A stretch of 64,000 bases of DNA, from contig OY760142.1 in assembly GCA_963663225.1 (NCBI GenBank), positions 3,191,002 to 3,255,001 on the forward strand, given 5' to 3'. Below the pieces are notes generated by a model. It worked only from the letters and a program-made list of their open reading frames with translations, was not told the DNA's origin and ran no database searches. This stretch comes from Nitrospirota bacterium (lineage in GTDB: Bacteria; Nitrospirota; UBA9217). This document shows, piece by piece, positions 3,387 to 62,520 of this stretch. The translations under genes and the position numbers were made by a program. Positions within the stretch are counted from its first letter, which is position 1. Each line of letters starts with the position of its first letter.

Positions 3387-4883
3387 TTACAACTCAAATA
3401 TTCTGCTGGCTCTAATAAAGCGTTTTAAATAATACTTTTCGTACAGGTTGCTCTTTGTCACGCCGGTTCTGCTGCTTGCATGGGCAAAAATACCATCACC
3501 CAGGTAAACGCCTACGTGAGAAACACGACCTCTGGTTGAGGAATCGAAAAAAAGCAGATCTCCCGGCTGGATACCGGACTCATCGACACTGAATCCGACA
3601 AGTGACTGACCCATGGTGCTTCTGGGAAGTTCAATATTCTGGGCGCGGTAGATTCTTCTCGTAAACGCAGAGCAATCCAACCCTTTATTGGAATCACCGC
3701 CGTAGCGATAGGGAACGCCAAGAAACTGCTCCACGATTGCGTTCAGCTTGTCCAAATCGAGCTGGCCTTTTTTTGCGTCCGTGGCGATGGATCGCCCCAT
3801 GTCCTCCAGTTGTTTTTTCCGAAGGGCCCGCCGTTCCCGGATTCTTTGCAGTTTCTCTTGCTCAAACGCAGTCAACTCGGCTTCAAGGGCTTTTTGCTCT
3901 GTTGCGAGTTGAATTGATTCGGCATGTGCAGTTTTCAGATGCGATTCAAGCTGCCTGATAATATTTTCTTGGGCGATTCTTGCGGCGTGTTCGCCCTCGC
4001 TTCTGCCCTGCTGCAGCAGTTTTTCTTCTGCCGCAGCTTTTTCGTTTTCTTTTTGCTTCGTGTCCGCTGCCGACAGCTGCAGTCGGCTCTCCAGCTGTCT
4101 CCTGCGCTCTTGTTTAGCGAGCATTTCCTGTTCTTTCGGAGTCAGTGGCTTCCATTTTTTAGGTTCTCTTTTTCGTACAAATTTGACCGCGTCCAGCGCC
4201 AGCTGGTCCGGGCTTTTTTTCTTCAATTTCCCCCTTTTTACGTCGCGCATAATGCGCAGGGCGACTTTGCGCGGCGTCAAACCACGTTCAACACCGTAAA
4301 TCAAACCACGGGAGAGCCCCAGTATTGACGCCGGTTTCCAGGCATCGTCAAGGGCACGGGCAATGAACCCTTCCGCAATATCCTGAGGCACATCCGAATT
4401 ATGAAAATCCTGGAGCGCTTTTGCGGCTGCAACCAGACTATCGGCAGGTACGGCCGCATATACAATAATATCCAGCATCTGCTCCACATATTCCAGCGGA
4501 GCGCCCCGCTTTGAAGATTCGTAAACAAGGCCGATAACTTCAACAGTTTTTTCTTCGGTAACATTTTCAAAATCAGCCTTTCTGACCACTTTTTCTACAA
4601 TTTTCAAAAAAACAGGGCTGAATCTTTTGTCCGAATCCGGTGAAAACCTGATAAGAAGCAGATTCTTTATCTTTTCTTTTTTGAGCCGAACGCATTCCTT
4701 ATCGAGCACTGCATTTATTTCGGCCATCTCCTTGCCGGTGTCGGAGTAACCAGTTGCCGGAAGAGAAAAAGACGCTATGCAGCAAAAAAGGAGAATGCTC
4801 CTAAAAATTGTTCTTGTAAAAACCGCTTTCATACTCTTTACTGTATTCCCTCCCCGAAGAGCCGGAGGCCTCTCTGTCACCAT
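3387..4883 (-). CDS. Secreted NlpC/P60 (C40) peptidase with long helical and coiled-coil N-terminal region
   Basis: C-terminal LGVPYRYGG, GLDCSAF, LPRS, PGDLLFF, HVGVY and HASS motifs; signal-like segment near the N-terminus. Start is uncertain. Confidence 0.85.
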   Translation of the reverse strand: MVTERPPALRGGNTVKSMKAVFTRTIFRSILLFCCIASFSLPATGYSDTGKEMAEINAVLDKECVRLKKEKIKNLLLIRFSPDSDKRFSPVFLKIVEKVVRKADFENVTEEKTVEVIGLVYESSKRGAPLEYVEQMLDIIVYAAVPADSLVAAAKALQDFHNSDVPQDIAEGFIARALDDAWKPASILGLSRGLIYGVERGLTPRKVALRIMRDVKRGKLKKKSPDQLALDAVKFVRKREPKKWKPLTPKEQEMLAKQERRRQLESRLQLSAADTKQKENEKAAAEEKLLQQGRSEGEHAARIAQENIIRQLESHLKTAHAESIQLATEQKALEAELTAFEQEKLQRIRERRALRKKQLEDMGRSIATDAKKGQLDLDKLNAIVEQFLGVPYRYGGDSNKGLDCSAFTRRIYRAQNIELPRSTMGQSLVGFSVDESGIQPGDLLFFDSSTRGRVSHVGVYLGDGIFAHASSRTGVTKSNLYEKYYLKRFIRASRIFEL

Positions 4884-23208: not shown

Positions 23209-23307
23209 GGGAGAGGTTACGGTGCTGGTGCCCGTCCCGGACTTCAAATCCGCTGTTTCCCGGCTTCGGTCGGGAAAGGTGAGTTCGATTCTCATGCTCT
23301 CCCGCCA
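23209..23307 (+). tRNA. selC: tRNA-Sec (anticodon UCA)
   Basis: 99 nt. Acceptor GGGAGAG/CTCTCCC with G discriminator and CCA; TGGT D-loop; CGGA-CTTCAAA-TCCG anticodon arm; 9-bp variable arm with TTCG loop; GTGAG-TTCGATT-CTCAT T arm. Confidence 0.93.
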
Positions 23308-30740: not shown

Positions 30741-31753
30741 GATTTCCTCCGGTATTTAACTATATAAACAGCCTTGCAAATAGGACAGCCTACAAACAGA
30801 ATAAACGAACCTAAACGGCTTCCCTTGATATTAGGATTTACCCTCGAAGCCATCTCGTATGCAAAAGCTCTGATAAAAGGAGCTATACACTTGGTAAATA
30901 ATTTACTTCTTTGCATGATCCTTACTAAAGGATCGGCTAATAGTCTGTATCCCCAATAGACTTCCGTAGTAAGACGCGGTTTGATATATTCCCATTCCTG
31001 GTCTACTATTTCTTTTTCAAGTAATCCCTGTCTTACGAGTTCTGAGCAAAGAACCCAAGCGGCAACACCCACAACTATATCCGCAAGCCATTCCCAAGCC
31101 GCTGTAGCAGCTCCGGCTACGGCTTCTCCTGCTGTGGATATGCCACTACCGATAGCAGACCACATACCAGTTCCAGCGGTAACGTCTGTGGCAATGCCTA
31201 ATGAAGTGTAGGTTGTTGGCAAAGCTGTGCTTATCGGTGTACTCAACGCCCCCTCAACTCCGTAACTTGCCAAGGTCGGCAATGCCTCTGTAGCAGCTAA
31301 ACCCGCACCCGTTGCACCTGTCGCATATAAAGAACCAGTGGCTAATGATGGGGTTTGCAAAGTCGTTGCTGTTCCAAGCGCGGTTTCAGTACCAGTTGCG
31401 CTCAATGTCTCTGGTGTAGTAGCTCCCCAAAGTCCAGCCTGTTTGCCAAGGTTATACGTCATTAAACCCTGTATTGGTGCCGACACAGCACTACTTACCG
31501 CTTGCTGGTTACTTTCACGTTCTTTTAGGTCTAATTGCCTTTTAGTAGCCGACTCTTGAAGATTCTGTTGCCTGACAGCTAAGTCGTACTTTCGCTGGCT
31601 GTCCTCTTCCTGAGACTGGGCTTGATAATTAGCAGCCACAACTCCCGTAAGAGCTTGCGGGGAAAGCCCCTGAGTCTGTCCCAAAGCCTTCTGCTGGGAC
31701 TGCGTTCTCATTAAGTCCTTGCTCCAATAATATGGGTCTGTATAATTAACCAT
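30707..31753 (-). CDS. Internal virion protein with C-terminal VLCSELVRQG (CFI-box-like) domain
   Basis: Q-rich N-terminus, T/A/G-rich middle, hydrophobic segment, then W-V-L-C-S-E-L..QG...GY...A.P.V domain. Confidence 0.55.
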   Translation of the reverse strand: MVNYTDPYYWSKDLMRTQSQQKALGQTQGLSPQALTGVVAANYQAQSQEEDSQRKYDLAVRQQNLQESATKRQLDLKERESNQQAVSSAVSAPIQGLMTYNLGKQAGLWGATTPETLSATGTETALGTATTLQTPSLATGSLYATGATGAGLAATEALPTLASYGVEGALSTPISTALPTTYTSLGIATDVTAGTGMWSAIGSGISTAGEAVAGAATAAWEWLADIVVGVAAWVLCSELVRQGLLEKEIVDQEWEYIKPRLTTEVYWGYRLLADPLVRIMQRSKLFTKCIAPFIRAFAYEMASRVNPNIKGSRLGSFILFVGCPICKAVYIVKYRRKSWLKHLTSRVA

Positions 31754-34745: not shown

Positions 34746-35681
34746 TTACCTGCTGTAATTGCCGATTGACCGTGATCGCTTATCCATCTTTGAGAAATTA
34801 ACTCGCATACCCGTATTCTGTTTACTACGTCTCATTTCAGCCGCTATCTTTCTTACTAAAACGTCATAATGCTTGAATAACGCATCTCCGAAATTAGCCT
34901 CACGATCCTTGTACTTATAAAGAAACGCTGCATATTGAACTATCGGCAATTCGTAACTAAAAGGAAGTTGATACGAACGGTACGGAGAGTACACCGGGCC
35001 CGGTCTCTTAATATAAGGAATAGTTAACGTAGCTGAAGCAGCAGGTTCGGGAGTCAAATAAACAGACAATCGAGGCTGTAAAGTAATTACATAGTCATCG
35101 TTCAGCGTCCATTGATTAGTAGTGCCGTTAAATAATGCGCATACAATCTGCGATGATGAGGTAATATCTATTACCACTCCGTCGCTATTATCACTTGTGT
35201 TGTATACCGCATCTCCAATTGAAACATTCGCAAAAGGTGCTGTTGAATCAGTCAAAACACACTCGCCGTTCGAGGCAGTACCAGCCAACGTAGCCGTACC
35301 AGCAAGAGAACCCTTATCGGTCGAATTAATAATCGCGAAACTGTCCGCAATGGCAGCCGTAGAGCTGTTATTCTCCATTATGATGCTTGCATAGTCTCTA
35401 CCAACTAAAAAAGTATCGTTTCCACCATAGGTATGTTTAATAAACTTACGGTTATACGAATCCTCAAGCGACAAATCCACAAAAGAAGGGTCAAGATCAT
35501 AACTAGATGTTCCAGCCACAACAGATATTGTTTGCGTGTCTGTTAGAAAATGGGTTTTAAAGTTAAAATCCTGTACAGCATCATACAAATAGTCGTAACT
35601 TTCCCGATCCGTCGCAAAAGTGCTGGAAGATGACTCTTGCAAGATGCTATACAGCCTTCTTGTTAAAGACTTGCCGTCCAT
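34746..35681 (-). CDS. Head-tail adaptor protein
   Basis: Helical N-terminus (YLYDAVQDF), V.G..SYDL, L.P.P and IVQYAA C-terminal helices; position after the head genes. Confidence 0.65.
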   Translation of the reverse strand: MDGKSLTRRLYSILQESSSSTFATDRESYDYLYDAVQDFNFKTHFLTDTQTISVVAGTSSYDLDPSFVDLSLEDSYNRKFIKHTYGGNDTFLVGRDYASIIMENNSSTAAIADSFAIINSTDKGSLAGTATLAGTASNGECVLTDSTAPFANVSIGDAVYNTSDNSDGVVIDITSSSQIVCALFNGTTNQWTLNDDYVITLQPRLSVYLTPEPAASATLTIPYIKRPGPVYSPYRSYQLPFSYELPIVQYAAFLYKYKDREANFGDALFKHYDVLVRKIAAEMRRSKQNTGMRVNFSKMDKRSRSIGNYSR

Positions 35682-37294: not shown

Positions 37295-38239
37295 TTAGCT
37301 GACGTTGTGTCCATATATCCAACGCCAATCCAAGAAACCACAAGCCCACCGTGCATAGACTGAGTTCTTGATTGAGAAGGTATCAAAATCCACCTTCATG
37401 CTGTATTCAGGGTTTATTCTGTCAATGAATACAAGGAACTGTTTCTGCTTGCTATGGTCGGTGAAGAACCAGTTGTTTGTGTCGTAGTCGTCTAGGCGAA
37501 GATAAGGAATAACCTTAATTCCACGCGCTACGTTTACCTTGAACTGACCTGTATCGGGATCAAGTTCCGAGCTTGCACCACTCCGTGGATCGTATCCAGT
37601 AGCCTCACAAGCAGCATCAAAGAGAGTATCTGGTACGATAAGAGTGTCTGGATTCATATCAATACGTTCAGAAATATCATTCCTGAAACGTCTCATCAGA
37701 ACCCTAGTTGCAGCTATGGAAGTCTTGGAAAGCGCACTCGTCCCGGCATTTGAAAATCCAGAAGAAGTTGACGTACCAGACTTCGTGGTGTGCGAAGATG
37801 AACAAAGCGCAACACCCTCTTCGGAGGTCTGGAAATCGAACGCGGCAGAGAAAGCATTGGCAAAAGGACGCACGCCAAGTTTCTCTTTTACGCGAGACGC
37901 AGACCTGGAAAGCATAGCTACACGGTTCTCCATGACCGAATATTTTTTGTCGTCAAGGAGTTTTCTTTCAAACATTACCGCACCGGCATATTCTTTCGGC
38001 TCGATCTTGTTGTAATATCCAGGTGCAATCGAAAGGTATGTCAGTTTCCCGTTAAATTCGGGAATATCCGGAAGTGAACCCACCTCGTAAAATTCACCAA
38101 AGGCAGAATCTCCGGGCATAACGTTGTAAAGAGTAGGAATCATCTGCACAACGTCTTTAAACTTGCTATCGTCGAATACTTTGCGCATCCGTTTATCCAG
38201 TAATCTGGTAAACTGCGCACTGCTGATGGGATTAGGCAT
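37295..38239 (-). CDS. Major capsid protein (Mu gpT-like HK97 fold)
   Basis: 314 aa; RKLLDD.KY, G..LCSSSH, P.TLIVP, NWF and C-terminal RW.CGFLDWRWIYG. Confidence 0.85.
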   Translation of the reverse strand: MPNPISSAQFTRLLDKRMRKVFDDSKFKDVVQMIPTLYNVMPGDSAFGEFYEVGSLPDIPEFNGKLTYLSIAPGYYNKIEPKEYAGAVMFERKLLDDKKYSVMENRVAMLSRSASRVKEKLGVRPFANAFSAAFDFQTSEEGVALCSSSHTTKSGTSTSSGFSNAGTSALSKTSIAATRVLMRRFRNDISERIDMNPDTLIVPDTLFDAACEATGYDPRSGASSELDPDTGQFKVNVARGIKVIPYLRLDDYDTNNWFFTDHSKQKQFLVFIDRINPEYSMKVDFDTFSIKNSVYARWACGFLDWRWIYGHNVS

Positions 38240-39921: not shown

Positions 39922-39943
39922 TGCTATTCTCCTTTTTAGATTT

Positions 39944-39981
39944 AAAATAAAAAAGGCGACCCGGATTTCTCCGAATCGCCT
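39944..39981 (-). terminator. Terminator-like hairpin immediately upstream of the scaffold RBS
   Basis: Minus strand AGGCGATTCGGA-GAAA-TCCGGGTCGCCT followed by TTTTTATTTT. Confidence 0.7.
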
Positions 39982-40030
39982 GTGTCCTCGTATGCTGTCT
40001 TGAGGTGTAGACGTAGACTAATTTTTAAAA

Positions 40031-40129
40031 TTACTTTCTTTTTAGAATCTCCAACAGCTTTTTCTTTATCCCCTCTATTTGCTGTAAGAGAAGAACAACT
40101 TCAGTTTTTTCCCGTTCATCAAGTGTCAT
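40031..40129 (-). CDS. Small 32-aa helical protein MTLDEREKTEVVLLLQQIEGIKKKLLEILKRK
   Basis: Translated by hand; overlaps the end of the upstream gene; AGGA SD. Confidence 0.45.
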   Translation of the reverse strand: MTLDEREKTEVVLLLQQIEGIKKKLLEILKRK

Positions 40130-40442
40130 TTTCTATCCTGTGGTTCTCAATCGTAGCCGACTGCTCATTGAAGTATTTTATTTTCGTATATCTATCCACC
40201 ATCCTTTTCCCTAAATATTTAAGTTCAATTTGTTCTTGTTCTTTTAAATATTCATCCGTATAGCAAAGCTTGTTTAAAAGTTCTGCCATCCTGGTAGCGT
40301 CTTCCTTGATTAATTCATACCCTGATGGGGAAGTAGCGTCTTTTATAAAAGGAGTAAGTTTGCTTAACAGTTCTATGATCTTTTCCCCTCGCTTACCGTA
40401 AGCAGACAAAAACACTTCTAGTTTAGTGGTTGGCTGGCTCAT
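40119..40442 (-). CDS. Hypothetical protein downstream of portal
   Basis: ATGA coupling with the portal stop. Confidence 0.65.
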   Translation of the reverse strand: MSQPTTKLEVFLSAYGKRGEKIIELLSKLTPFIKDATSPSGYELIKEDATRMAELLNKLCYTDEYLKEQEQIELKYLGKRMVDRYTKIKYFNEQSATIENHRIENDT

Positions 40443-42406
40443 TTAATCCCCCCACCAGCCGCCATAGCTCCTTCACGCGCTCCCATCTCTTGAAAGTTCA
40501 TAGGGAGACCCATTTGATTTGACGCAGGGGTGTTTTTCATATTCTTTATTTCGTTTCCCTGCCCTTCGTCCTCGTTCCATTTTGCCTTTTCGAGTTTCTT
40601 GATCATTCCTGCGATTACGTTAAACTCATCTCCCTGAAGCTCTAACTGCCTTCTTACCATATGGGCTATAATAGGCATTACTTCAGGTACGCCTTTCGCA
40701 AGTCCTGAAATCCTTCCGATTGTCTGATCGTAAAGCTGAATCTTCTTATACTTGTTAAATTCAGACTCAATATTAGAAGTAACCGGAGTATAGGTATAAT
40801 CCGCATACGCATCAAAATCTTTTGCAGCGTCTCCCAGCATCTTTAAAATTGTTTCATCGTGAGAAAATCTGTACGTCATTTGCATAATCATCCAGTAAAG
40901 CTCAGTAAGAAACGTATATTCAAACGTCAAGGCTTTATAGTTCTGTCTTGCATTGGTTCTTTGCTCCGCTCCCGCAACGGCGGTTGCTGTTGTGCTTGCC
41001 TTGTCCGGCAAAGCACCCATAGTTGTCGGATAAGTAGAAGTAGCTTGCTGCATCTTCCCGGTAAGCATGGAGATTGTAGTCAACATACCGGGGATATTGT
41101 CTCTAATCATAAGCTCTTGAAGATCTTCTACGTTTTCAAGCTCGATAACGTGTTCCGGTTCTATATAAACCGATGAATTGTCCTCTAATGAGTATTTCTT
41201 TCCTTTAAAAACAGGCAGGGTTGCCAGCTTTACCCGATCATGCCCCATATTAAAGTCATCATTAATGGCAATCTGCAATTCCTTCATGTTTTTGCCATCA
41301 GATAAACCTTCATCCTTGGTAGGATGGATATAACACCAACCCCTGATAATTGGTTTATACGGTTTATCCTCTGCATCCAAGAATGGCGTAGGAACAAACC
41401 TGATCATTATTTTATGATTTCCGATCACAACGTAAGTAATAATAGTCTCGATAAGTTCCGCACCATCTAAAATAGAACCGTCTGAGTTGTGCCCTGGTTT
41501 AGCTTTAGTTGCGTTTCCGAACCTGTCCTTCTCTTCTACAATAGCCCAAAACTTTCCGTATCTATCAAGTACGTCCAGGTATTGAACGGGAGTTTTATCT
41601 GCGTTGTTCTGGTTGTCCTGTTGATATGTTTCTCTGGCGGTATCCGTCTGCTCCGCGTTTCTGTTCTTTATTGCTTCTTGTACTTTATCTAAATTAAAAT
41701 ATTGATTGATTTTTTCTTTTGATTTCAGCTCGTCGTAAGAAAGCTCAGACCGTATAGTTACCCAGTCTTTCTGTTGAATCGTGTAACAATACTTATTATC
41801 AGTAAAAACGTTTCTTGGATGTATAACGTCAAAATTAAACCTGTCTACTACGGGTTTCACTACGTCTCTTTCCTCAATCGTAATCTTATCGGTAGCTTGC
41901 CCAGTCGCAGAATCAATAACAGGATTATGCTTTTCAAACGGTTGCTTAATTGTTTTCTCTTCACGCTCCCACCAGCAAAGAGCGTAACAAGTACCCTTCA
42001 AGGAATTAATAGTACGCATCCGTATATATTTAGGATAGTAATATAAGTCCCGATCATTAAGCGTTTTATTAATGCAAACCTTGGCTGCGTTTGCTTTTTG
42101 CATGTCTTCCGGTCGATCCCCATCAAGTTTGACTTCTACGAAATCCCTTGACTGAAAATACTGATTGGCCCAAGCGGAGGCATCGGTTAGAAGAATAGAC
42201 GGCATTTCTGGTATAAAAGTGTCGCTCATCCAGTCGTAATCTTTTTCGTTTCTCTTGCACTCAAGCATATCAATCAAAGCATCAAACTCTACATTCTCGT
42301 CCTGCTGATCTGCTTGTGCTGTTTTATACTCAGAATCTACAACTATAGAGGCTATATAATCCTGTACCTGTTCATCTATATCTTTGGTCTTTTTCTTCCG
42401 AGCCAT
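40439..42406 (-). CDS. Portal protein (P22/podovirus-type, large)
   Basis: 655 aa; GT..ALCWW, P.NVF.D, MKELQ.AIN, TATA C-terminal motif; position between terminase and scaffold. Confidence 0.85.
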   Translation of the reverse strand: MARKKKTKDIDEQVQDYIASIVVDSEYKTAQADQQDENVEFDALIDMLECKRNEKDYDWMSDTFIPEMPSILLTDASAWANQYFQSRDFVEVKLDGDRPEDMQKANAAKVCINKTLNDRDLYYYPKYIRMRTINSLKGTCYALCWWEREEKTIKQPFEKHNPVIDSATGQATDKITIEERDVVKPVVDRFNFDVIHPRNVFTDNKYCYTIQQKDWVTIRSELSYDELKSKEKINQYFNLDKVQEAIKNRNAEQTDTARETYQQDNQNNADKTPVQYLDVLDRYGKFWAIVEEKDRFGNATKAKPGHNSDGSILDGAELIETIITYVVIGNHKIMIRFVPTPFLDAEDKPYKPIIRGWCYIHPTKDEGLSDGKNMKELQIAINDDFNMGHDRVKLATLPVFKGKKYSLEDNSSVYIEPEHVIELENVEDLQELMIRDNIPGMLTTISMLTGKMQQATSTYPTTMGALPDKASTTATAVAGAEQRTNARQNYKALTFEYTFLTELYWMIMQMTYRFSHDETILKMLGDAAKDFDAYADYTYTPVTSNIESEFNKYKKIQLYDQTIGRISGLAKGVPEVMPIIAHMVRRQLELQGDEFNVIAGMIKKLEKAKWNEDEGQGNEIKNMKNTPASNQMGLPMNFQEMGAREGAMAAGGGIK

Positions 42407-51717: not shown

Positions 51718-52554
51718 TCACTTTGCCCGGTTATCAATTAAATTGATTATATCTTCCATATTCCACAGCCTATCAGTTAATTTTGCCGCCATTGCAGGGG
51801 TAATACTTAGCGATTTGTGAATCCTGACAAAGTTATAAAACATGAAATAAAGAGAAAGCGCATGATAGTGATTTTCCACTTTCTTTGAAAAAGCATTTGT
51901 TAAACGTGTAAACCGTTTCATGGACATACGCATTGTAAGGTTTTGACGCTCAACATGAGATGTTGAAATATATTTACTATCGCCTTTCCCGCTAATAATC
52001 GTTTTTTCTGCTGCTACGAATTTAGAAGGACTATACCGCGTTTCTTTGTCCGGCACACTCCTATATATCTTTACAAGCTGACTAAAATCCACTTCTGAAC
52101 CAAAAGCACTTTCTACAGCATCTAAATACATTTTATGGCCGTCTGTGGTAAGCTGGACTCGATTATCAACCCTGCTGGCAAGATCGCGCATAAACATAGT
52201 TGCATTTTCAATATCACGACTGCCAACATGCCAAGTGATAATGAGTTTAGTTTCAGAATCAATTGCCGTAAAAGTCCATACATCACCATAGCCAAATTGC
52301 CCTTCTTTGTCTTTCGGTACGTTCTTTTCCTTCGAGTAACAAAAACTCCAAATTTCATCGGCCTGAACACGCTTAACAGTCAATCCCCTTACATGCTGAC
52401 TATGATAGTCATTACAAGCAAACCCGGCCTCTACCAGTAGCTTTGTAACCGTATTAATGGAAACATCTGCAATCCTTGAAATAGATCTCATAGAAGAGCC
52501 TTCACAAAGCATATTTAGTATCTGGACTCGTTTATGTATGGGTAGTTTATTCAT
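51718..52554 (-). CDS. IS1-family DDE transposase (single ORF, N-terminal HTH)
   Basis: MNKLP..KR.QIL..L.EG.SMRSISR HTH; ADEIWSF, TTDG and VERQN triad; [12 protein letters not shown]. Stop lies within the IR. Confidence 0.92.
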
Positions 52555-52560
52555 GGTTAT

Positions 52561-52592
52561 ATTATATGAACTTTTTGCTTGAGTGTCAAGCA
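52561..52592 (-). promoter_or_regulatory. Consensus sigma70 promoter for the transposase with overlapping palindrome
   Basis: TTGACA (52584-52589), 17 nt, TATAAT (52561-52566), 6 nt, ATG. Palindrome TGCTTGA-N3-TCAAGCA at 52576-52592. Confidence 0.8.
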
Positions 52593-52613
52593 TTATTTTC
52601 AGTTTAAACTGTA

Positions 52614-52645
52614 AAAAAAATAGACCCTGGAAGAGGGTCTATTTT
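52614..52645 (-). terminator. Intrinsic terminator between the passenger operon and the transposase promoter
   Basis: AAAATAGACCCT/AGGGTCTATTTT stem ending in a T7 run on the minus strand. Confidence 0.75.
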
Positions 52646-52648
52646 ATA

Positions 52649-52819
52649 TTAAAAGTTTATCTTAGATATTTTCTGGTTAGTAATTTCTGTCGATTTCATC
52701 CAATGGGACGGATTAGGAATCCCCATTCTAGAAACAGGTGGATAAAATTTCTCTAATCTTTTATTTGTATCTGAGAATTTTTTTAACTTAGTTTCGATGT
52801 GCTTTTTCATCCTTTTCAT
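52649..52819 (-). CDS. Small basic passenger protein, 56 aa, absent from the ORF track
   Basis: MKRMKKHIETKLKKFSDTNKRLEKFYPPVSRMG...; starts 2 nt after the protease stop with a GGAGG SD; ends at the terminator. Confidence 0.55.
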   Translation of the reverse strand: MKRMKKHIETKLKKFSDTNKRLEKFYPPVSRMGIPNPSHWMKSTEITNQKISKINF

Positions 52820-58671: not shown

Positions 58672-58902
58672 CTAATCTATCTTCATACTATTTATTATTT
58701 CTTGTAAATAAATTAATTCTTCCACGGTTAATTGCATTGTTTGCCCTTGGGAAGATTTACCAAAATGATTAACTTTATTTAGCTCGTATCTTTTATCGTG
58801 GTCATTCCATATGATTCCAATGGATTTATAAAACGATTTATCTTGTGCATATTTTTTAATTATGTTTTCGGTATTCATGGGACTCCTAATGTTTGGCAGC
58901 AC
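58672..58902 (-). CDS. Hypothetical protein
   Basis: ORF track; internal ATG with a GGAG SD. Confidence 0.45.
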   Translation of the reverse strand: MLPNIRSPMNTENIIKKYAQDKSFYKSIGIIWNDHDKRYELNKVNHFGKSSQGQTMQLTVEELIYLQEIINSMKID

Positions 58903-58935
58903 GTCTCTCCGTTTTATTAAGCTGCCTCTTAGTCA

Positions 58936-59154
58936 CTCCACTTTGTACTGACCCCCGACGTTCCGGAATCGGGTAGTTTTCCGGGCAGGTGTCGCCCTTT
59001 ATAAACCCGGTAGGCCAGTCTCTTGGGAGTAGCTTCAGGTCGTCACCTACCTCGCTACCTTATTCCCTCACCTGGCTCAGACCTCACTAGTAGAGGGCTA
59101 CCGGGGTGATACGTTGGCGATCCCTGTACTCCGAGCTATGACAGATTTGTGGAG
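58936..59154 (-). ncRNA. Candidate structured non-coding RNA
   Basis: GC-rich gap with no ORF-track entry; nested stems CTCCAC/GTGGAG, CCCGGTAG/CTACCGGG, GCCAG/CTGGC, GGGA/TCCC, GTAGC/GCTAC, plus hairpins. Confidence 0.5.
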
Positions 59155-59163
59155 CCTTGGGGA

Positions 59164-59400
59164 TCAGATTTTTACATGAGACTTATTTTGACGTTTTCTT
59201 TCTGCTTCCATCTTTGAGCAATAGCCGGACAAAATACCGTATTTATCTCTAGGCCTGGTATCTGTGTAGCTAATAAGCTTTATTCCATGGTTCCAGAACC
59301 AACGGTGTTTTTCAGGAGTATCAGAAATTGGCCTAGTAGGCCCGGTGTGCTTAACCCCGTTTCCCAAGAGATTCCTTTTTACTATTCTAAATACGCTCAC
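59164..59400 (-). CDS. Hypothetical protein
   Basis: ORF track, early-right operon orientation. Confidence 0.45.
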   Translation of the reverse strand: MSVFRIVKRNLLGNGVKHTGPTRPISDTPEKHRWFWNHGIKLISYTDTRPRDKYGILSGYCSKMEAERKRQNKSHVKI

Positions 59401-59587: not shown

Positions 59588-60130
59588 CTATCTCATTACT
59601 GCTTTTACAAATGCTATTGCCGTTAAATAATCATGCTGATGCTTTGTGTCCTTGTGTTTTTTTGATACAGATAGTTTAAAATTATCTACTGTATCGAAAT
59701 AACAACCAGTTTTAACGTAAATACCCTTATCTGTGTTATAGGCAGTCATGTAGGATTGGCGGGAACCTATTGGGCCTATAATTAGGACATTATTGTTTGT
59801 TTTAAGAATAAGCTTTTCTCCATTCGCCCCTCCGAGATTCGCCCCTCCGAGATACGCCCCTCCGAGATACGCCCCTTCGAGATTCGCCCCTCCGAGATTC
59901 GCCCCTCCGAGATTCGCCCCTCCGAGATACGCCCCTTCGAGATACGCCCCTTCGAGATTCGCCCCTCCGAGATTCGCCCCTCCGAGATACGCCCCTTCGA
60001 GATACGCCCCTTCGAGATACGCCCCTTCGAGATACGCCCGATTTTTTTCTACCGCTTCTTTGATGTTGGTATATTTATTAGCCTCAACAATTACCTGACC
60101 CGTAAATCTGTTTTTTATTGCTTCGTGCAT
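59588..60130 (-). CDS. Pentapeptide-repeat protein
   Basis: IKNRFTG N-terminus, 14 A[YN]L[EG]G repeats, C-terminal GPIGSR...GC.F domain. Confidence 0.88.
59822..60039. repeat. 15-bp tandem repeat, about 14.5 copies, GCCCCTYCGAGATWC
   Basis: Directly visible; only two positions vary. Confidence 0.95.
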
Positions 60131-60776: not shown

Positions 60777-60847
60777 ATTATATACTCTTTATTTGTTCCT
60801 GTCAAGAACATAAAAGGAGTTGCTTTAACTTTTTTTTAGCCCATAAT
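60777..60847. promoter_or_regulatory. Divergent PR/PRM-like promoters with operator
   Basis: Minus strand TTGACA (60800-60805), 17 nt, TATAAT (60777-60782). Plus strand TTGCTT, 16 nt, CATAAT (60842-60847). Palindrome TGTTCCTG-T-CAAGAACA at 60794-60810. Confidence 0.75.
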
Positions 60848-60853
60848 ACGCCT

Positions 60854-61300
60854 ATGAAACCAATAGATATGATTCCGAAAGATATACTTAAAAAAATTAG
60901 TGCTATACGAGATGAGAAGGGGATATCCCAGGAGAGTGTGGCAGAGGCTATAAAAACTCCGCGTCCTAATTTATCTAAGAAGGAAAACTGTCATATACCA
61001 ATAACTTTGGGAGAGTTTATAAAATATTGCAGAGAAATAGGTTTAGACCCCAGAGACGCGTTTTCGGAAGACTATAAAAAACCTGAGGTAAAGTACGATG
61101 CAATAGACGCGGAAATTATGCGTTTAGTGAAAACACTTCCCCCATCATCAAAGCGTGATATTCTGAAAAATGTCAAGAAGGAAATAAAACTTCACAGAAT
61201 GAATAATGAAAATACCGATCCAGACATGCTTCATAAATCCGCTGATTCAGCAAAAAATCTTTATCATAAAAATAAAAAGAAGGCTAAATCTTCTGCCTAG
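60854..61300 (+). CDS. CI-like repressor (XRE HTH, no S24 peptidase domain)
   Basis: R.EKGISQE.VAE...R..LSK.EN HTH; divergent from cro. Confidence 0.75.
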   Translation: MKPIDMIPKDILKKISAIRDEKGISQESVAEAIKTPRPNLSKKENCHIPITLGEFIKYCREIGLDPRDAFSEDYKKPEVKYDAIDAEIMRLVKTLPPSSKRDILKNVKKEIKLHRMNNENTDPDMLHKSADSAKNLYHKNKKKAKSSA

Positions 61301-62334: not shown

Positions 62335-62520
62335 ATGGCCTCCTTTTTATGGCTTATGAAAATATATCAAATAAATAATAACTTTTCAACCTCCCCCTCC
62401 TCATCTAATGAGCAGAGCGCGGGAGTAATTGATTAGGCTTCCTGACGGCCTTAAAGATCAGGCCATACTTGTGAAAGTACAGCCCCGTTGAGAGGCGGGG
62501 CAAAAGGAGGGTGCCTAGCC

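Follow-up and report, generated by a model that had tools for sequence, protein, structure and literature searches.

The 64,000-nt window analysed in this study carries a prophage of ~43.6 kb, which occupies its right two thirds. The host contig was taken to be circular. On this footing, the last 24 nt of a tRNA-Sec gene (23209–23307) were found repeated at genome positions 2870–2893, just beyond the window end, and this repeat indicates that the ~43.6-kb prophage most probably integrated in the selenocysteine tRNA gene, with its att repeats apparently intact. The tRNA-Sec gene was the sole gene reported by ARAGORN in the window, and its Rfam model match (23209–23303) was the only one at gathering score when Rfam 15 was searched over the whole window. 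The structural genes were complete, comprising an SU10-like portal and adaptor and a Mu gpT-like capsid (34746–35681, 37295–38239, and 40439–42406). With att repeats and complete structural genes present, the prophage looks intact, so that decay junk is a less likely source of unusual segments within it. The mean GC content of the prophage was 0.416 (sd 0.048, in 260-nt windows), and that of the host genome was 0.494. As a side observation, immunity and replication genes of lambdoid type are combined here with SU10/Mu gpT-like structural genes, and the early genes of the prophage are separated from its packaging genes by an IS1-like DDE transposase ORF (51718–52593).

In the lambdoid immunity region, a cI-like HTH gene is encoded on the plus strand (60854–61300), and a sigma-70 promoter that agrees with the consensus at 12 of 12 positions (TTGACA-17-TATAAT, 60805..60777, minus strand) precedes a cro-like HTH gene. 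The order on the minus strand is the cro-like gene, a cII-like gene, a pentapeptide-repeat gene, two small ORFs, the gap studied here, ORFs of 68, 58, and 142 aa, an HNH/NinG-like gene, and then an O-like replication initiator, which lies 1.4 kb downstream of the gap. Both neighbours of the gap are encoded on the minus strand, as is the only strong promoter (60805..60777); located ~1.6 kb upstream, this promoter is the likely source of a transcript across the gap. The original prediction had placed the gap in an early-right operon, and given the cro-side, cII-like, HNH/NinG-like, and O-like genes and the 12/12 promoter this is a fair description. An intrinsic terminator on the same strand, consisting of a 7-bp hairpin and U8 (52640..52612, minus strand), is located 6.3 kb downstream of the gap. 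A second perfect sigma-70 promoter (52589..52561, minus strand) was noticed directly after this terminator and before the IS1-like transposase ORF.

The gap is bordered upstream by a 78-aa ORF (59164..59400, minus strand) with a GTG start and a UGA stop at 59166–59164, for which neither a protein homologue nor a Pfam or PHROG match was found. Downstream, a 68-aa ORF (58672..58878, minus strand) starts with an ATG at 58878, with AGGAG 5 nt upstream; protein search returned a single distant relative of it with 42% identity, and for the 58-aa ORF one relative, 78% identical and located on a 502-bp contig. As the flanking ORFs are themselves orphans, this part of the prophage may as a whole be of recent origin or evolve fast. 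The pentapeptide-repeat gene, which encodes a 180-aa protein (59588–60130, minus strand), is built of tandem 15-nt units and is where GC content peaks highest in the prophage (0.58); the C-terminal part of its product matches PHROGs of unknown function.

The gap itself comprises 285 bases (58879–59163, minus strand) and is non-coding. Neither ATG nor TTG occurs on its minus strand, GTG frames extend over at most 16 codons, and no minus-strand ORF of at least 30 aa is present. No match at E ≤ 1 to Pfam or PHROGs was obtained with the six frame pieces of the gap, and no relative of the longest frame (57 aa) was found in the protein collection; a hidden ORF or pseudogene was dropped on these grounds. 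Two further ways in which the gap might serve coding were considered along with a decayed gene, namely selenocysteine read-through of the UGA of the 78-aa ORF and a self-splicing intron joining the flanking ORFs. The former could draw on the tRNA-Sec of the host and on a hairpin that starts 8 nt past the UGA, as examined for a bacterial SECIS; read-through, however, would add just 21 codons before a UAG, to an ORF that has no homologues. For the latter, one splice-site pair (after U 59168 and after G 58934) would join the flanking frames in phase, but no intron model of Rfam matched at E ≤ 10, and no guide complementary to the 5′ exon end was seen when the sequence was read for it, so that a group I intron was rejected. 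Hidden coding or splicing is accordingly given very little credence, the least of the explanations considered.

The composition of the gap sets it apart from its surroundings. Its GC content was 0.544, whereas the ORFs on its two sides had 0.405 and 0.271, in agreement with the GC-rich gap that had been reported originally. In a crude ORF map of the prophage, 10 intergenic gaps of at least 80 nt were counted, nine of which had GC contents of 0.29–0.43, and this one is the sole GC-rich gap among them. Without selection, the non-coding DNA of an AT-rich phage should be AT-rich as well, and being the only exception among 10 is the strongest single point for a selected structure. However, because the host genome has a GC content of 0.494, the gap is also near to host-like composition and could be acquired DNA. 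It may then be a functionless spacer, that is, a foreign or host-like scrap remaining where early-gene modules were joined in mosaic fashion, which folds merely because it is GC-rich; the uniqueness of the gap among the 10 and the intact appearance of the prophage speak against such a scrap, and the host-like composition and the orphan neighbour ORFs speak for it.

A compact four-way junction was predicted for the minus strand, and was the MFE structure under three choices of ends. The closed domain covers 220 nt (58948..59167, minus strand; GC 0.568), and its four arms are a closing stem, a 5′ hairpin, a long arm, and a 3′ hairpin. The predicted closing stem has 9 bp (59167–59159 paired with 58956–58948; 5′ strand 59159..59167, minus strand) and includes the UGA of the upstream ORF, which puts this stop codon at the foot of the fold. 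The 5′ hairpin (59128..59155, minus strand), with a 5-bp stem and an 18-nt loop, was absent from the original model. It is followed by a long irregular arm of 141 nt (58986..59126, minus strand), in which ~43 pairs are broken by internal loops. This arm is tipped by a central domain of 100 nt (59006..59105, minus strand) in the shape of a Y, with an 8-bp stem that encloses a 4-bp hairpin and a 63-nt arm; it contains GA-rich internal loops and is common to the MFE structure and the original model. The 3′ hairpin (58963..58984, minus strand) has a 6-bp stem and a 10-nt loop with a CUACC motif (58976–58972). This second CUACC duplicates the 3′ strand of the 8-bp stem, and as read from the sequence an alternative 5-bp pairing is possible, in which the 5′ strand of the 8-bp stem (59098–59102) could pair with either 59009–59013 or the second CUACC (58972–58976). 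Beyond the closed domain, a leader hairpin (58877..58941, minus strand) is predicted to cover in part the ribosome-binding site and the start codon of the 68-aa ORF; the unpaired probability of bases 58889–58886 was 0.01–0.04, and the GAG of the Shine-Dalgarno sequence was mostly free. Separately, 10 nt at the start of the upstream ORF (59362–59371) were found perfectly complementary to 59019–59028, in the 3′ strand of the GA-rich internal loop of the long arm, which is about chance level in 900 nt (~0.4 such matches expected by our own estimate).

The stems proposed in the original prediction all consisted of canonical pairs at the places given for them (11 of 11), but their full nesting reached only −68.2 kcal/mol, 18 kcal/mol worse than the MFE of −86.6 kcal/mol. 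The pair probabilities distinguished between the parts of that model. The 8-bp domain formed by CCCGGTAG/CTACCGGG, with its hairpin and long arm, was retained with probabilities mostly >0.9 (one pair at 0.61). In contrast, the probability of the outer CTCCAC/GTGGAG stem was 0.16, and those of the GTAC/GATC, GGGC/GCCC, and CCCGAT/GTCGGG stems were 0.00–0.05. In its details the original structure was right only in part.

The stability of the predicted fold was compared with that of dinucleotide shuffles. At the coordinates of the original prediction, the z-score was only −1.81, and 10 of 200 shuffles were as good; for a 221-nt span it was −2.8. The closed 220-nt domain gave a z-score of −3.13 (0 of 150 shuffles as stable), and together with the downstream leader (316 nt) −3.28 (0 of 100), where the ends of both the 220-nt and the 316-nt segments had been picked post-folding. 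The central Y domain scored −2.4 to −2.6, and its arm alone −3.1. The closed domain was also well defined, with an ensemble diversity of 13.4 vs. 49.2 ± 15.7 in the shuffles (0 of 150 as low). The folding is thus moderately better than that of shuffled sequence, so that this condition for refuting the original prediction did not arise, and the higher stability and much better definition argue against a functionless spacer.

Against the background of the window, however, the fold was less conspicuous. RNALfold assigned 58943–59176 (minus strand) a z-score of −4.33 at −89.6 kcal/mol. Among the 183 distinct local structures that it delimited on the minus strand of the window, this one came 18th, and among the 111 within the prophage it came 10th; most of those ahead of it sit in coding sequence. 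In a shuffle scan of 1132 windows of 104 nt (unphased), the best z-score over the gap was −1.94, and the 5th percentile was −2.27. Therefore, the predicted fold is a good one, moderately better than shuffles, but not exceptional against the window background, as a spacer that folds for its GC content alone could also be.

Further, the plus strand of the domain folded equally well or better (z-score −3.75; RNALfold rank 8 of 149), so that the assignment to the minus strand rests on the direction of the operon and not on energy. That both strands fold alike is compatible with a functionless spacer, and it also fits a signal at the DNA level, such as a hairpin for single-strand initiation or for priming, or a cluster of protein-binding palindromes, near the replication genes, the O-like gene being 1.4 kb away. 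With DNA parameters, however, the z-scores were only −1.85 and −1.92 (10 and 8 of 200 shuffles as good), vs. −3.1 and −3.75 with RNA parameters, and neither iterons nor direct repeats were found in the gap. A DNA-level signal is accordingly considered very improbable.

The gap was then compared with known RNA classes. ARAGORN found no tRNA or tmRNA in it, as had been stated originally. Likewise, the absence of a recognised family was upheld, since no Rfam match was obtained in the gap at gathering score, and at E ≤ 10 the search of 58700–59400 returned only two chance matches to snoRNA models, both outside the gap. The library covers riboswitches, ribozymes, group I and group II introns, 6S, Y RNA, DicF, STnc100, HEARO, and ROOL, among others. 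With no Rfam family matching, the ribozyme-like role that had been suggested finds no support as far as known ribozymes are concerned, and no Rfam match pointed to a prophage leader of the STnc100/PasD type. Several other classes were tried and rejected. For tRNA mimicry, the best local alignment of the gap to 47 host tRNAs and the tmRNA scored 21, below the maximum that shuffled sequences reached on average (22.3). For a retron msr-msd, no RVT_1 match occurred in the whole genome (3 of 14 control genomes were positive), and the neighbouring genes have no RT domain. For a bacterial Y RNA, no TROVE (Ro) match occurred in the genome, control genomes being positive, and no Rfam family was found in the gap. 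For a CRISPR-repeat mimic, i.e. an RNA anti-CRISPR, a k-mer scan of the host genome found no CRISPR-like array.

These results also bear on the possibility that a stable RNA is cut from the early transcript and acts in trans, as a protein decoy, as part of an RNP, or as a small regulatory RNA like DicF. The compact closed domain, whose 5′ and 3′ ends are predicted to be paired by the 9-bp stem, would suit such an RNA, and GA-rich internal loops are of a kind that often may bind protein. On the other hand, the segment has no promoter or terminator of its own and no candidate partner was found, the genome having neither a reverse transcriptase nor Ro, no CRISPR array to be mimicked, and no sign in the gap of tRNA or tmRNA mimicry. 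We regard a trans-acting RNA as unlikely. DicF of the Qin prophage is a small RNA from a prophage early operon that remains within the operon transcript or is released from it. Similar to it, the gap is a GC-rich, ORF-free stretch with a predicted fold in an immunity-proximal lambdoid early operon; however, RNAs of this kind are enterobacterial, conserved in many genomes, mostly early-left, and have Rfam families, while the present segment matched no Rfam family even at E ≤ 10 and no relative of it was found in the collections searched. Lambda oop RNA, an antisense RNA of 77 nt, is encoded between cII and O with its own promoter and terminator. The gap has the same place on the map, between the cII-like and the replication genes, and its plus strand folds equally well, but around it the plus strand has no site resembling a promoter or a terminator from which an antisense transcript could be made.

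Relatives of the gap were searched for in several collections. In its own genome the element is single-copy by blastn, and short-word blastn gave nothing beyond 13–22 nt, which is not what would be expected of a scrap of host DNA. Blastn of the gap found no match in any of 63 genomes of the family, and the cII-like protein was absent from these genomes as well. Among 400 other genomes of the phylum, only four matches of 20–34 nt were obtained (E 0.003–0.009), which were dismissed as short chance matches after three of the loci had been read and all four scanned with Rfam. No match was found to 271 nt of the gap or to the 5.5-kb early region among the 50,697 phage records of INPHARED, nor to the gap among the 72,556 plasmids of PLSDB, and in the phage and viral collections searched neither the early region, as DNA, nor the O-like protein had a match.

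Searches that relied on structure or on gene order gave similar results. A covariance model of the 141-nt arm (58986..59126), built from one sequence entered twice, found only itself in its own genome and nothing at E ≤ 1 in 150 relatives. Descriptor patterns, in which the letters of the internal loops were fixed and the helices free, were used in exact-pattern scans of viral and metagenome contigs. No match was obtained in the viral contigs, and the 31 matches in metagenome contigs were rejected, as all of them were unpaired (1–9 of 13 helix positions) and AT-rich. Synteny was sought in viral contigs by way of the 78-aa, 68-aa, 142-aa, and O-like proteins, with nothing usable; the only protein-anchor match there (27%) fell in a GC-rich, tightly packed, non-syntenic locus and was discarded. 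A two-sequence alignment used as an anchor in metagenome, genome, and viral contigs produced just one 16-residue match. In public sequencing runs, one run was identical to the window and another contained two short identical contigs that lacked the core, and hence no variation was obtained.

Since none of the collections searched yielded a homologue, there is neither conservation nor covariation to draw on, which limits the verdict. The element is an unproven single-sequence candidate, an orphan that belongs to none of the known families tested. For the same reason, no homologue was seen to conserve a reading frame in place of a structure, an outcome that would have spoken against the original prediction, and no frame of the gap matched Pfam, PHROGs, or the protein collection. 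The sequences at hand neither confirm nor refute the original proposal that the gap encodes a structured phage RNA. The lack of any relative adds to the case for a functionless insert, for which the missing host-genome match and the better-than-shuffled fold are the counterweights; we consider such an insert possible though doubtful, and nearly as likely as the cis-acting element described in the following.

Our tentative preference, held at clearly less than even confidence, is for an orphan structured element on the sense strand of the early transcript, which would act in cis on the processing, stability, or translation of what lies downstream. The gap would encode a structured RNA domain within the polycistronic early-right transcript of the prophage. 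The upstream ORF's stop codon marks the beginning of the predicted fold, whose 3′ flank is predicted to fold over the ribosome-binding site of the next gene, an arrangement that suits an intercistronic control element. In this role the compact four-way junction, with its closing stem beginning at the preceding stop codon, may serve the processing, the stability, or the translational control of the downstream small ORFs and the replication genes. What the sequence shows is a GC-enriched gap without coding capacity, its place and strand in the operon, and a predicted fold that is stable and well defined; formation of this fold in vivo, selection on it, and its role are our inference. The RNase III hairpins of the T7 early mRNA are a precedent for this kind of control; they are single hairpins of ~60–100 nt located between cistrons, and how stable the neighbouring cistrons are and how well they are translated depends on them. 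An intercistronic RNase III site comprises about two turns of mostly double-stranded RNA. The present element is similar to the T7 hairpins in that a long irregular duplex with internal loops (141 nt, ~43 pairs) is predicted between cistrons, but it differs in being a predicted four-way junction rather than a single hairpin.

An antiterminator had also been suggested for this RNA. In processive antitermination of the put type, the nascent RNA binds RNA polymerase, at the zinc-binding domain of the beta-prime subunit, and brings about read-through, which here might concern the terminator at 52640..52612. In phage HK022, put RNA is ~70 nt long with two stem-loops and lies directly at, or ~270 nt below, the early promoters, and putL and putR are two related copies that act in cis, the nascent RNA working without a dedicated protein (PMC9378689). 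The gap likewise encodes a structured RNA in a lambdoid early operon and would be part of the early-right transcript, with a strong intrinsic terminator 6.3 kb downstream on the same strand, and in the early genes that were scanned, none of the products was recognised as Q-like or N-like. When compared by description with put, however, the present element is three times as large, has a predicted four-armed fold of ~220 nt in place of two stem-loops, lies ~1.6 kb from the promoter instead of ~270 nt or less, and is single-copy; in addition, the terminator at 52.6 kb may belong to the adjacent IS-like element. By the features that could be compared, namely size, promoter distance, and paired copies, the element did not resemble put, and a put-like antiterminator is judged quite improbable.

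A bolder version of a functional RNA would be that the gap holds the first member of an undescribed class of phage ncRNA, a four-way-junction RNA that is either released or kept in the transcript and that binds a host or phage protein. For example, it might bind RNA polymerase and so allow passage through the 52.6-kb terminator, no Q-like or N-like protein being needed. Sampling of the phage lineage would then have to be so sparse that relatives have so far escaped sequencing. This is a long shot, about as improbable as a trans-acting RNA.

If the cis-acting element or another RNA encoded here is functional, it would represent an unrelated variant of the known structured RNAs that lie within early operons of lambdoid phages. 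Such elements with unrelated architecture would then exist beyond the enterobacterial phages, in which they are mainly known so far, in a lineage whose early region has no DNA in common with any of 50,697 deposited phages. It would also provide a handle on how the phage times the expression of its replication genes, or on terminator read-through.

Other stable local structures were recorded on the minus strand in the course of the analysis. The strongest in the window was 52604–52659, which contains the terminator hairpin and its U8 (z-scores −7.0 and −8.2). Very stable folds were also found within long ORFs, at 3927–4105 in a host gene (z-score −6.5) and at 30996–31164 in a prophage gene with a GC peak (−6.2). 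Two further stable structures of the prophage are intergenic, 62338–62510 (RNALfold z-score −5.15) and 39922–40099 (−4.09), and neither of them is GC-rich.
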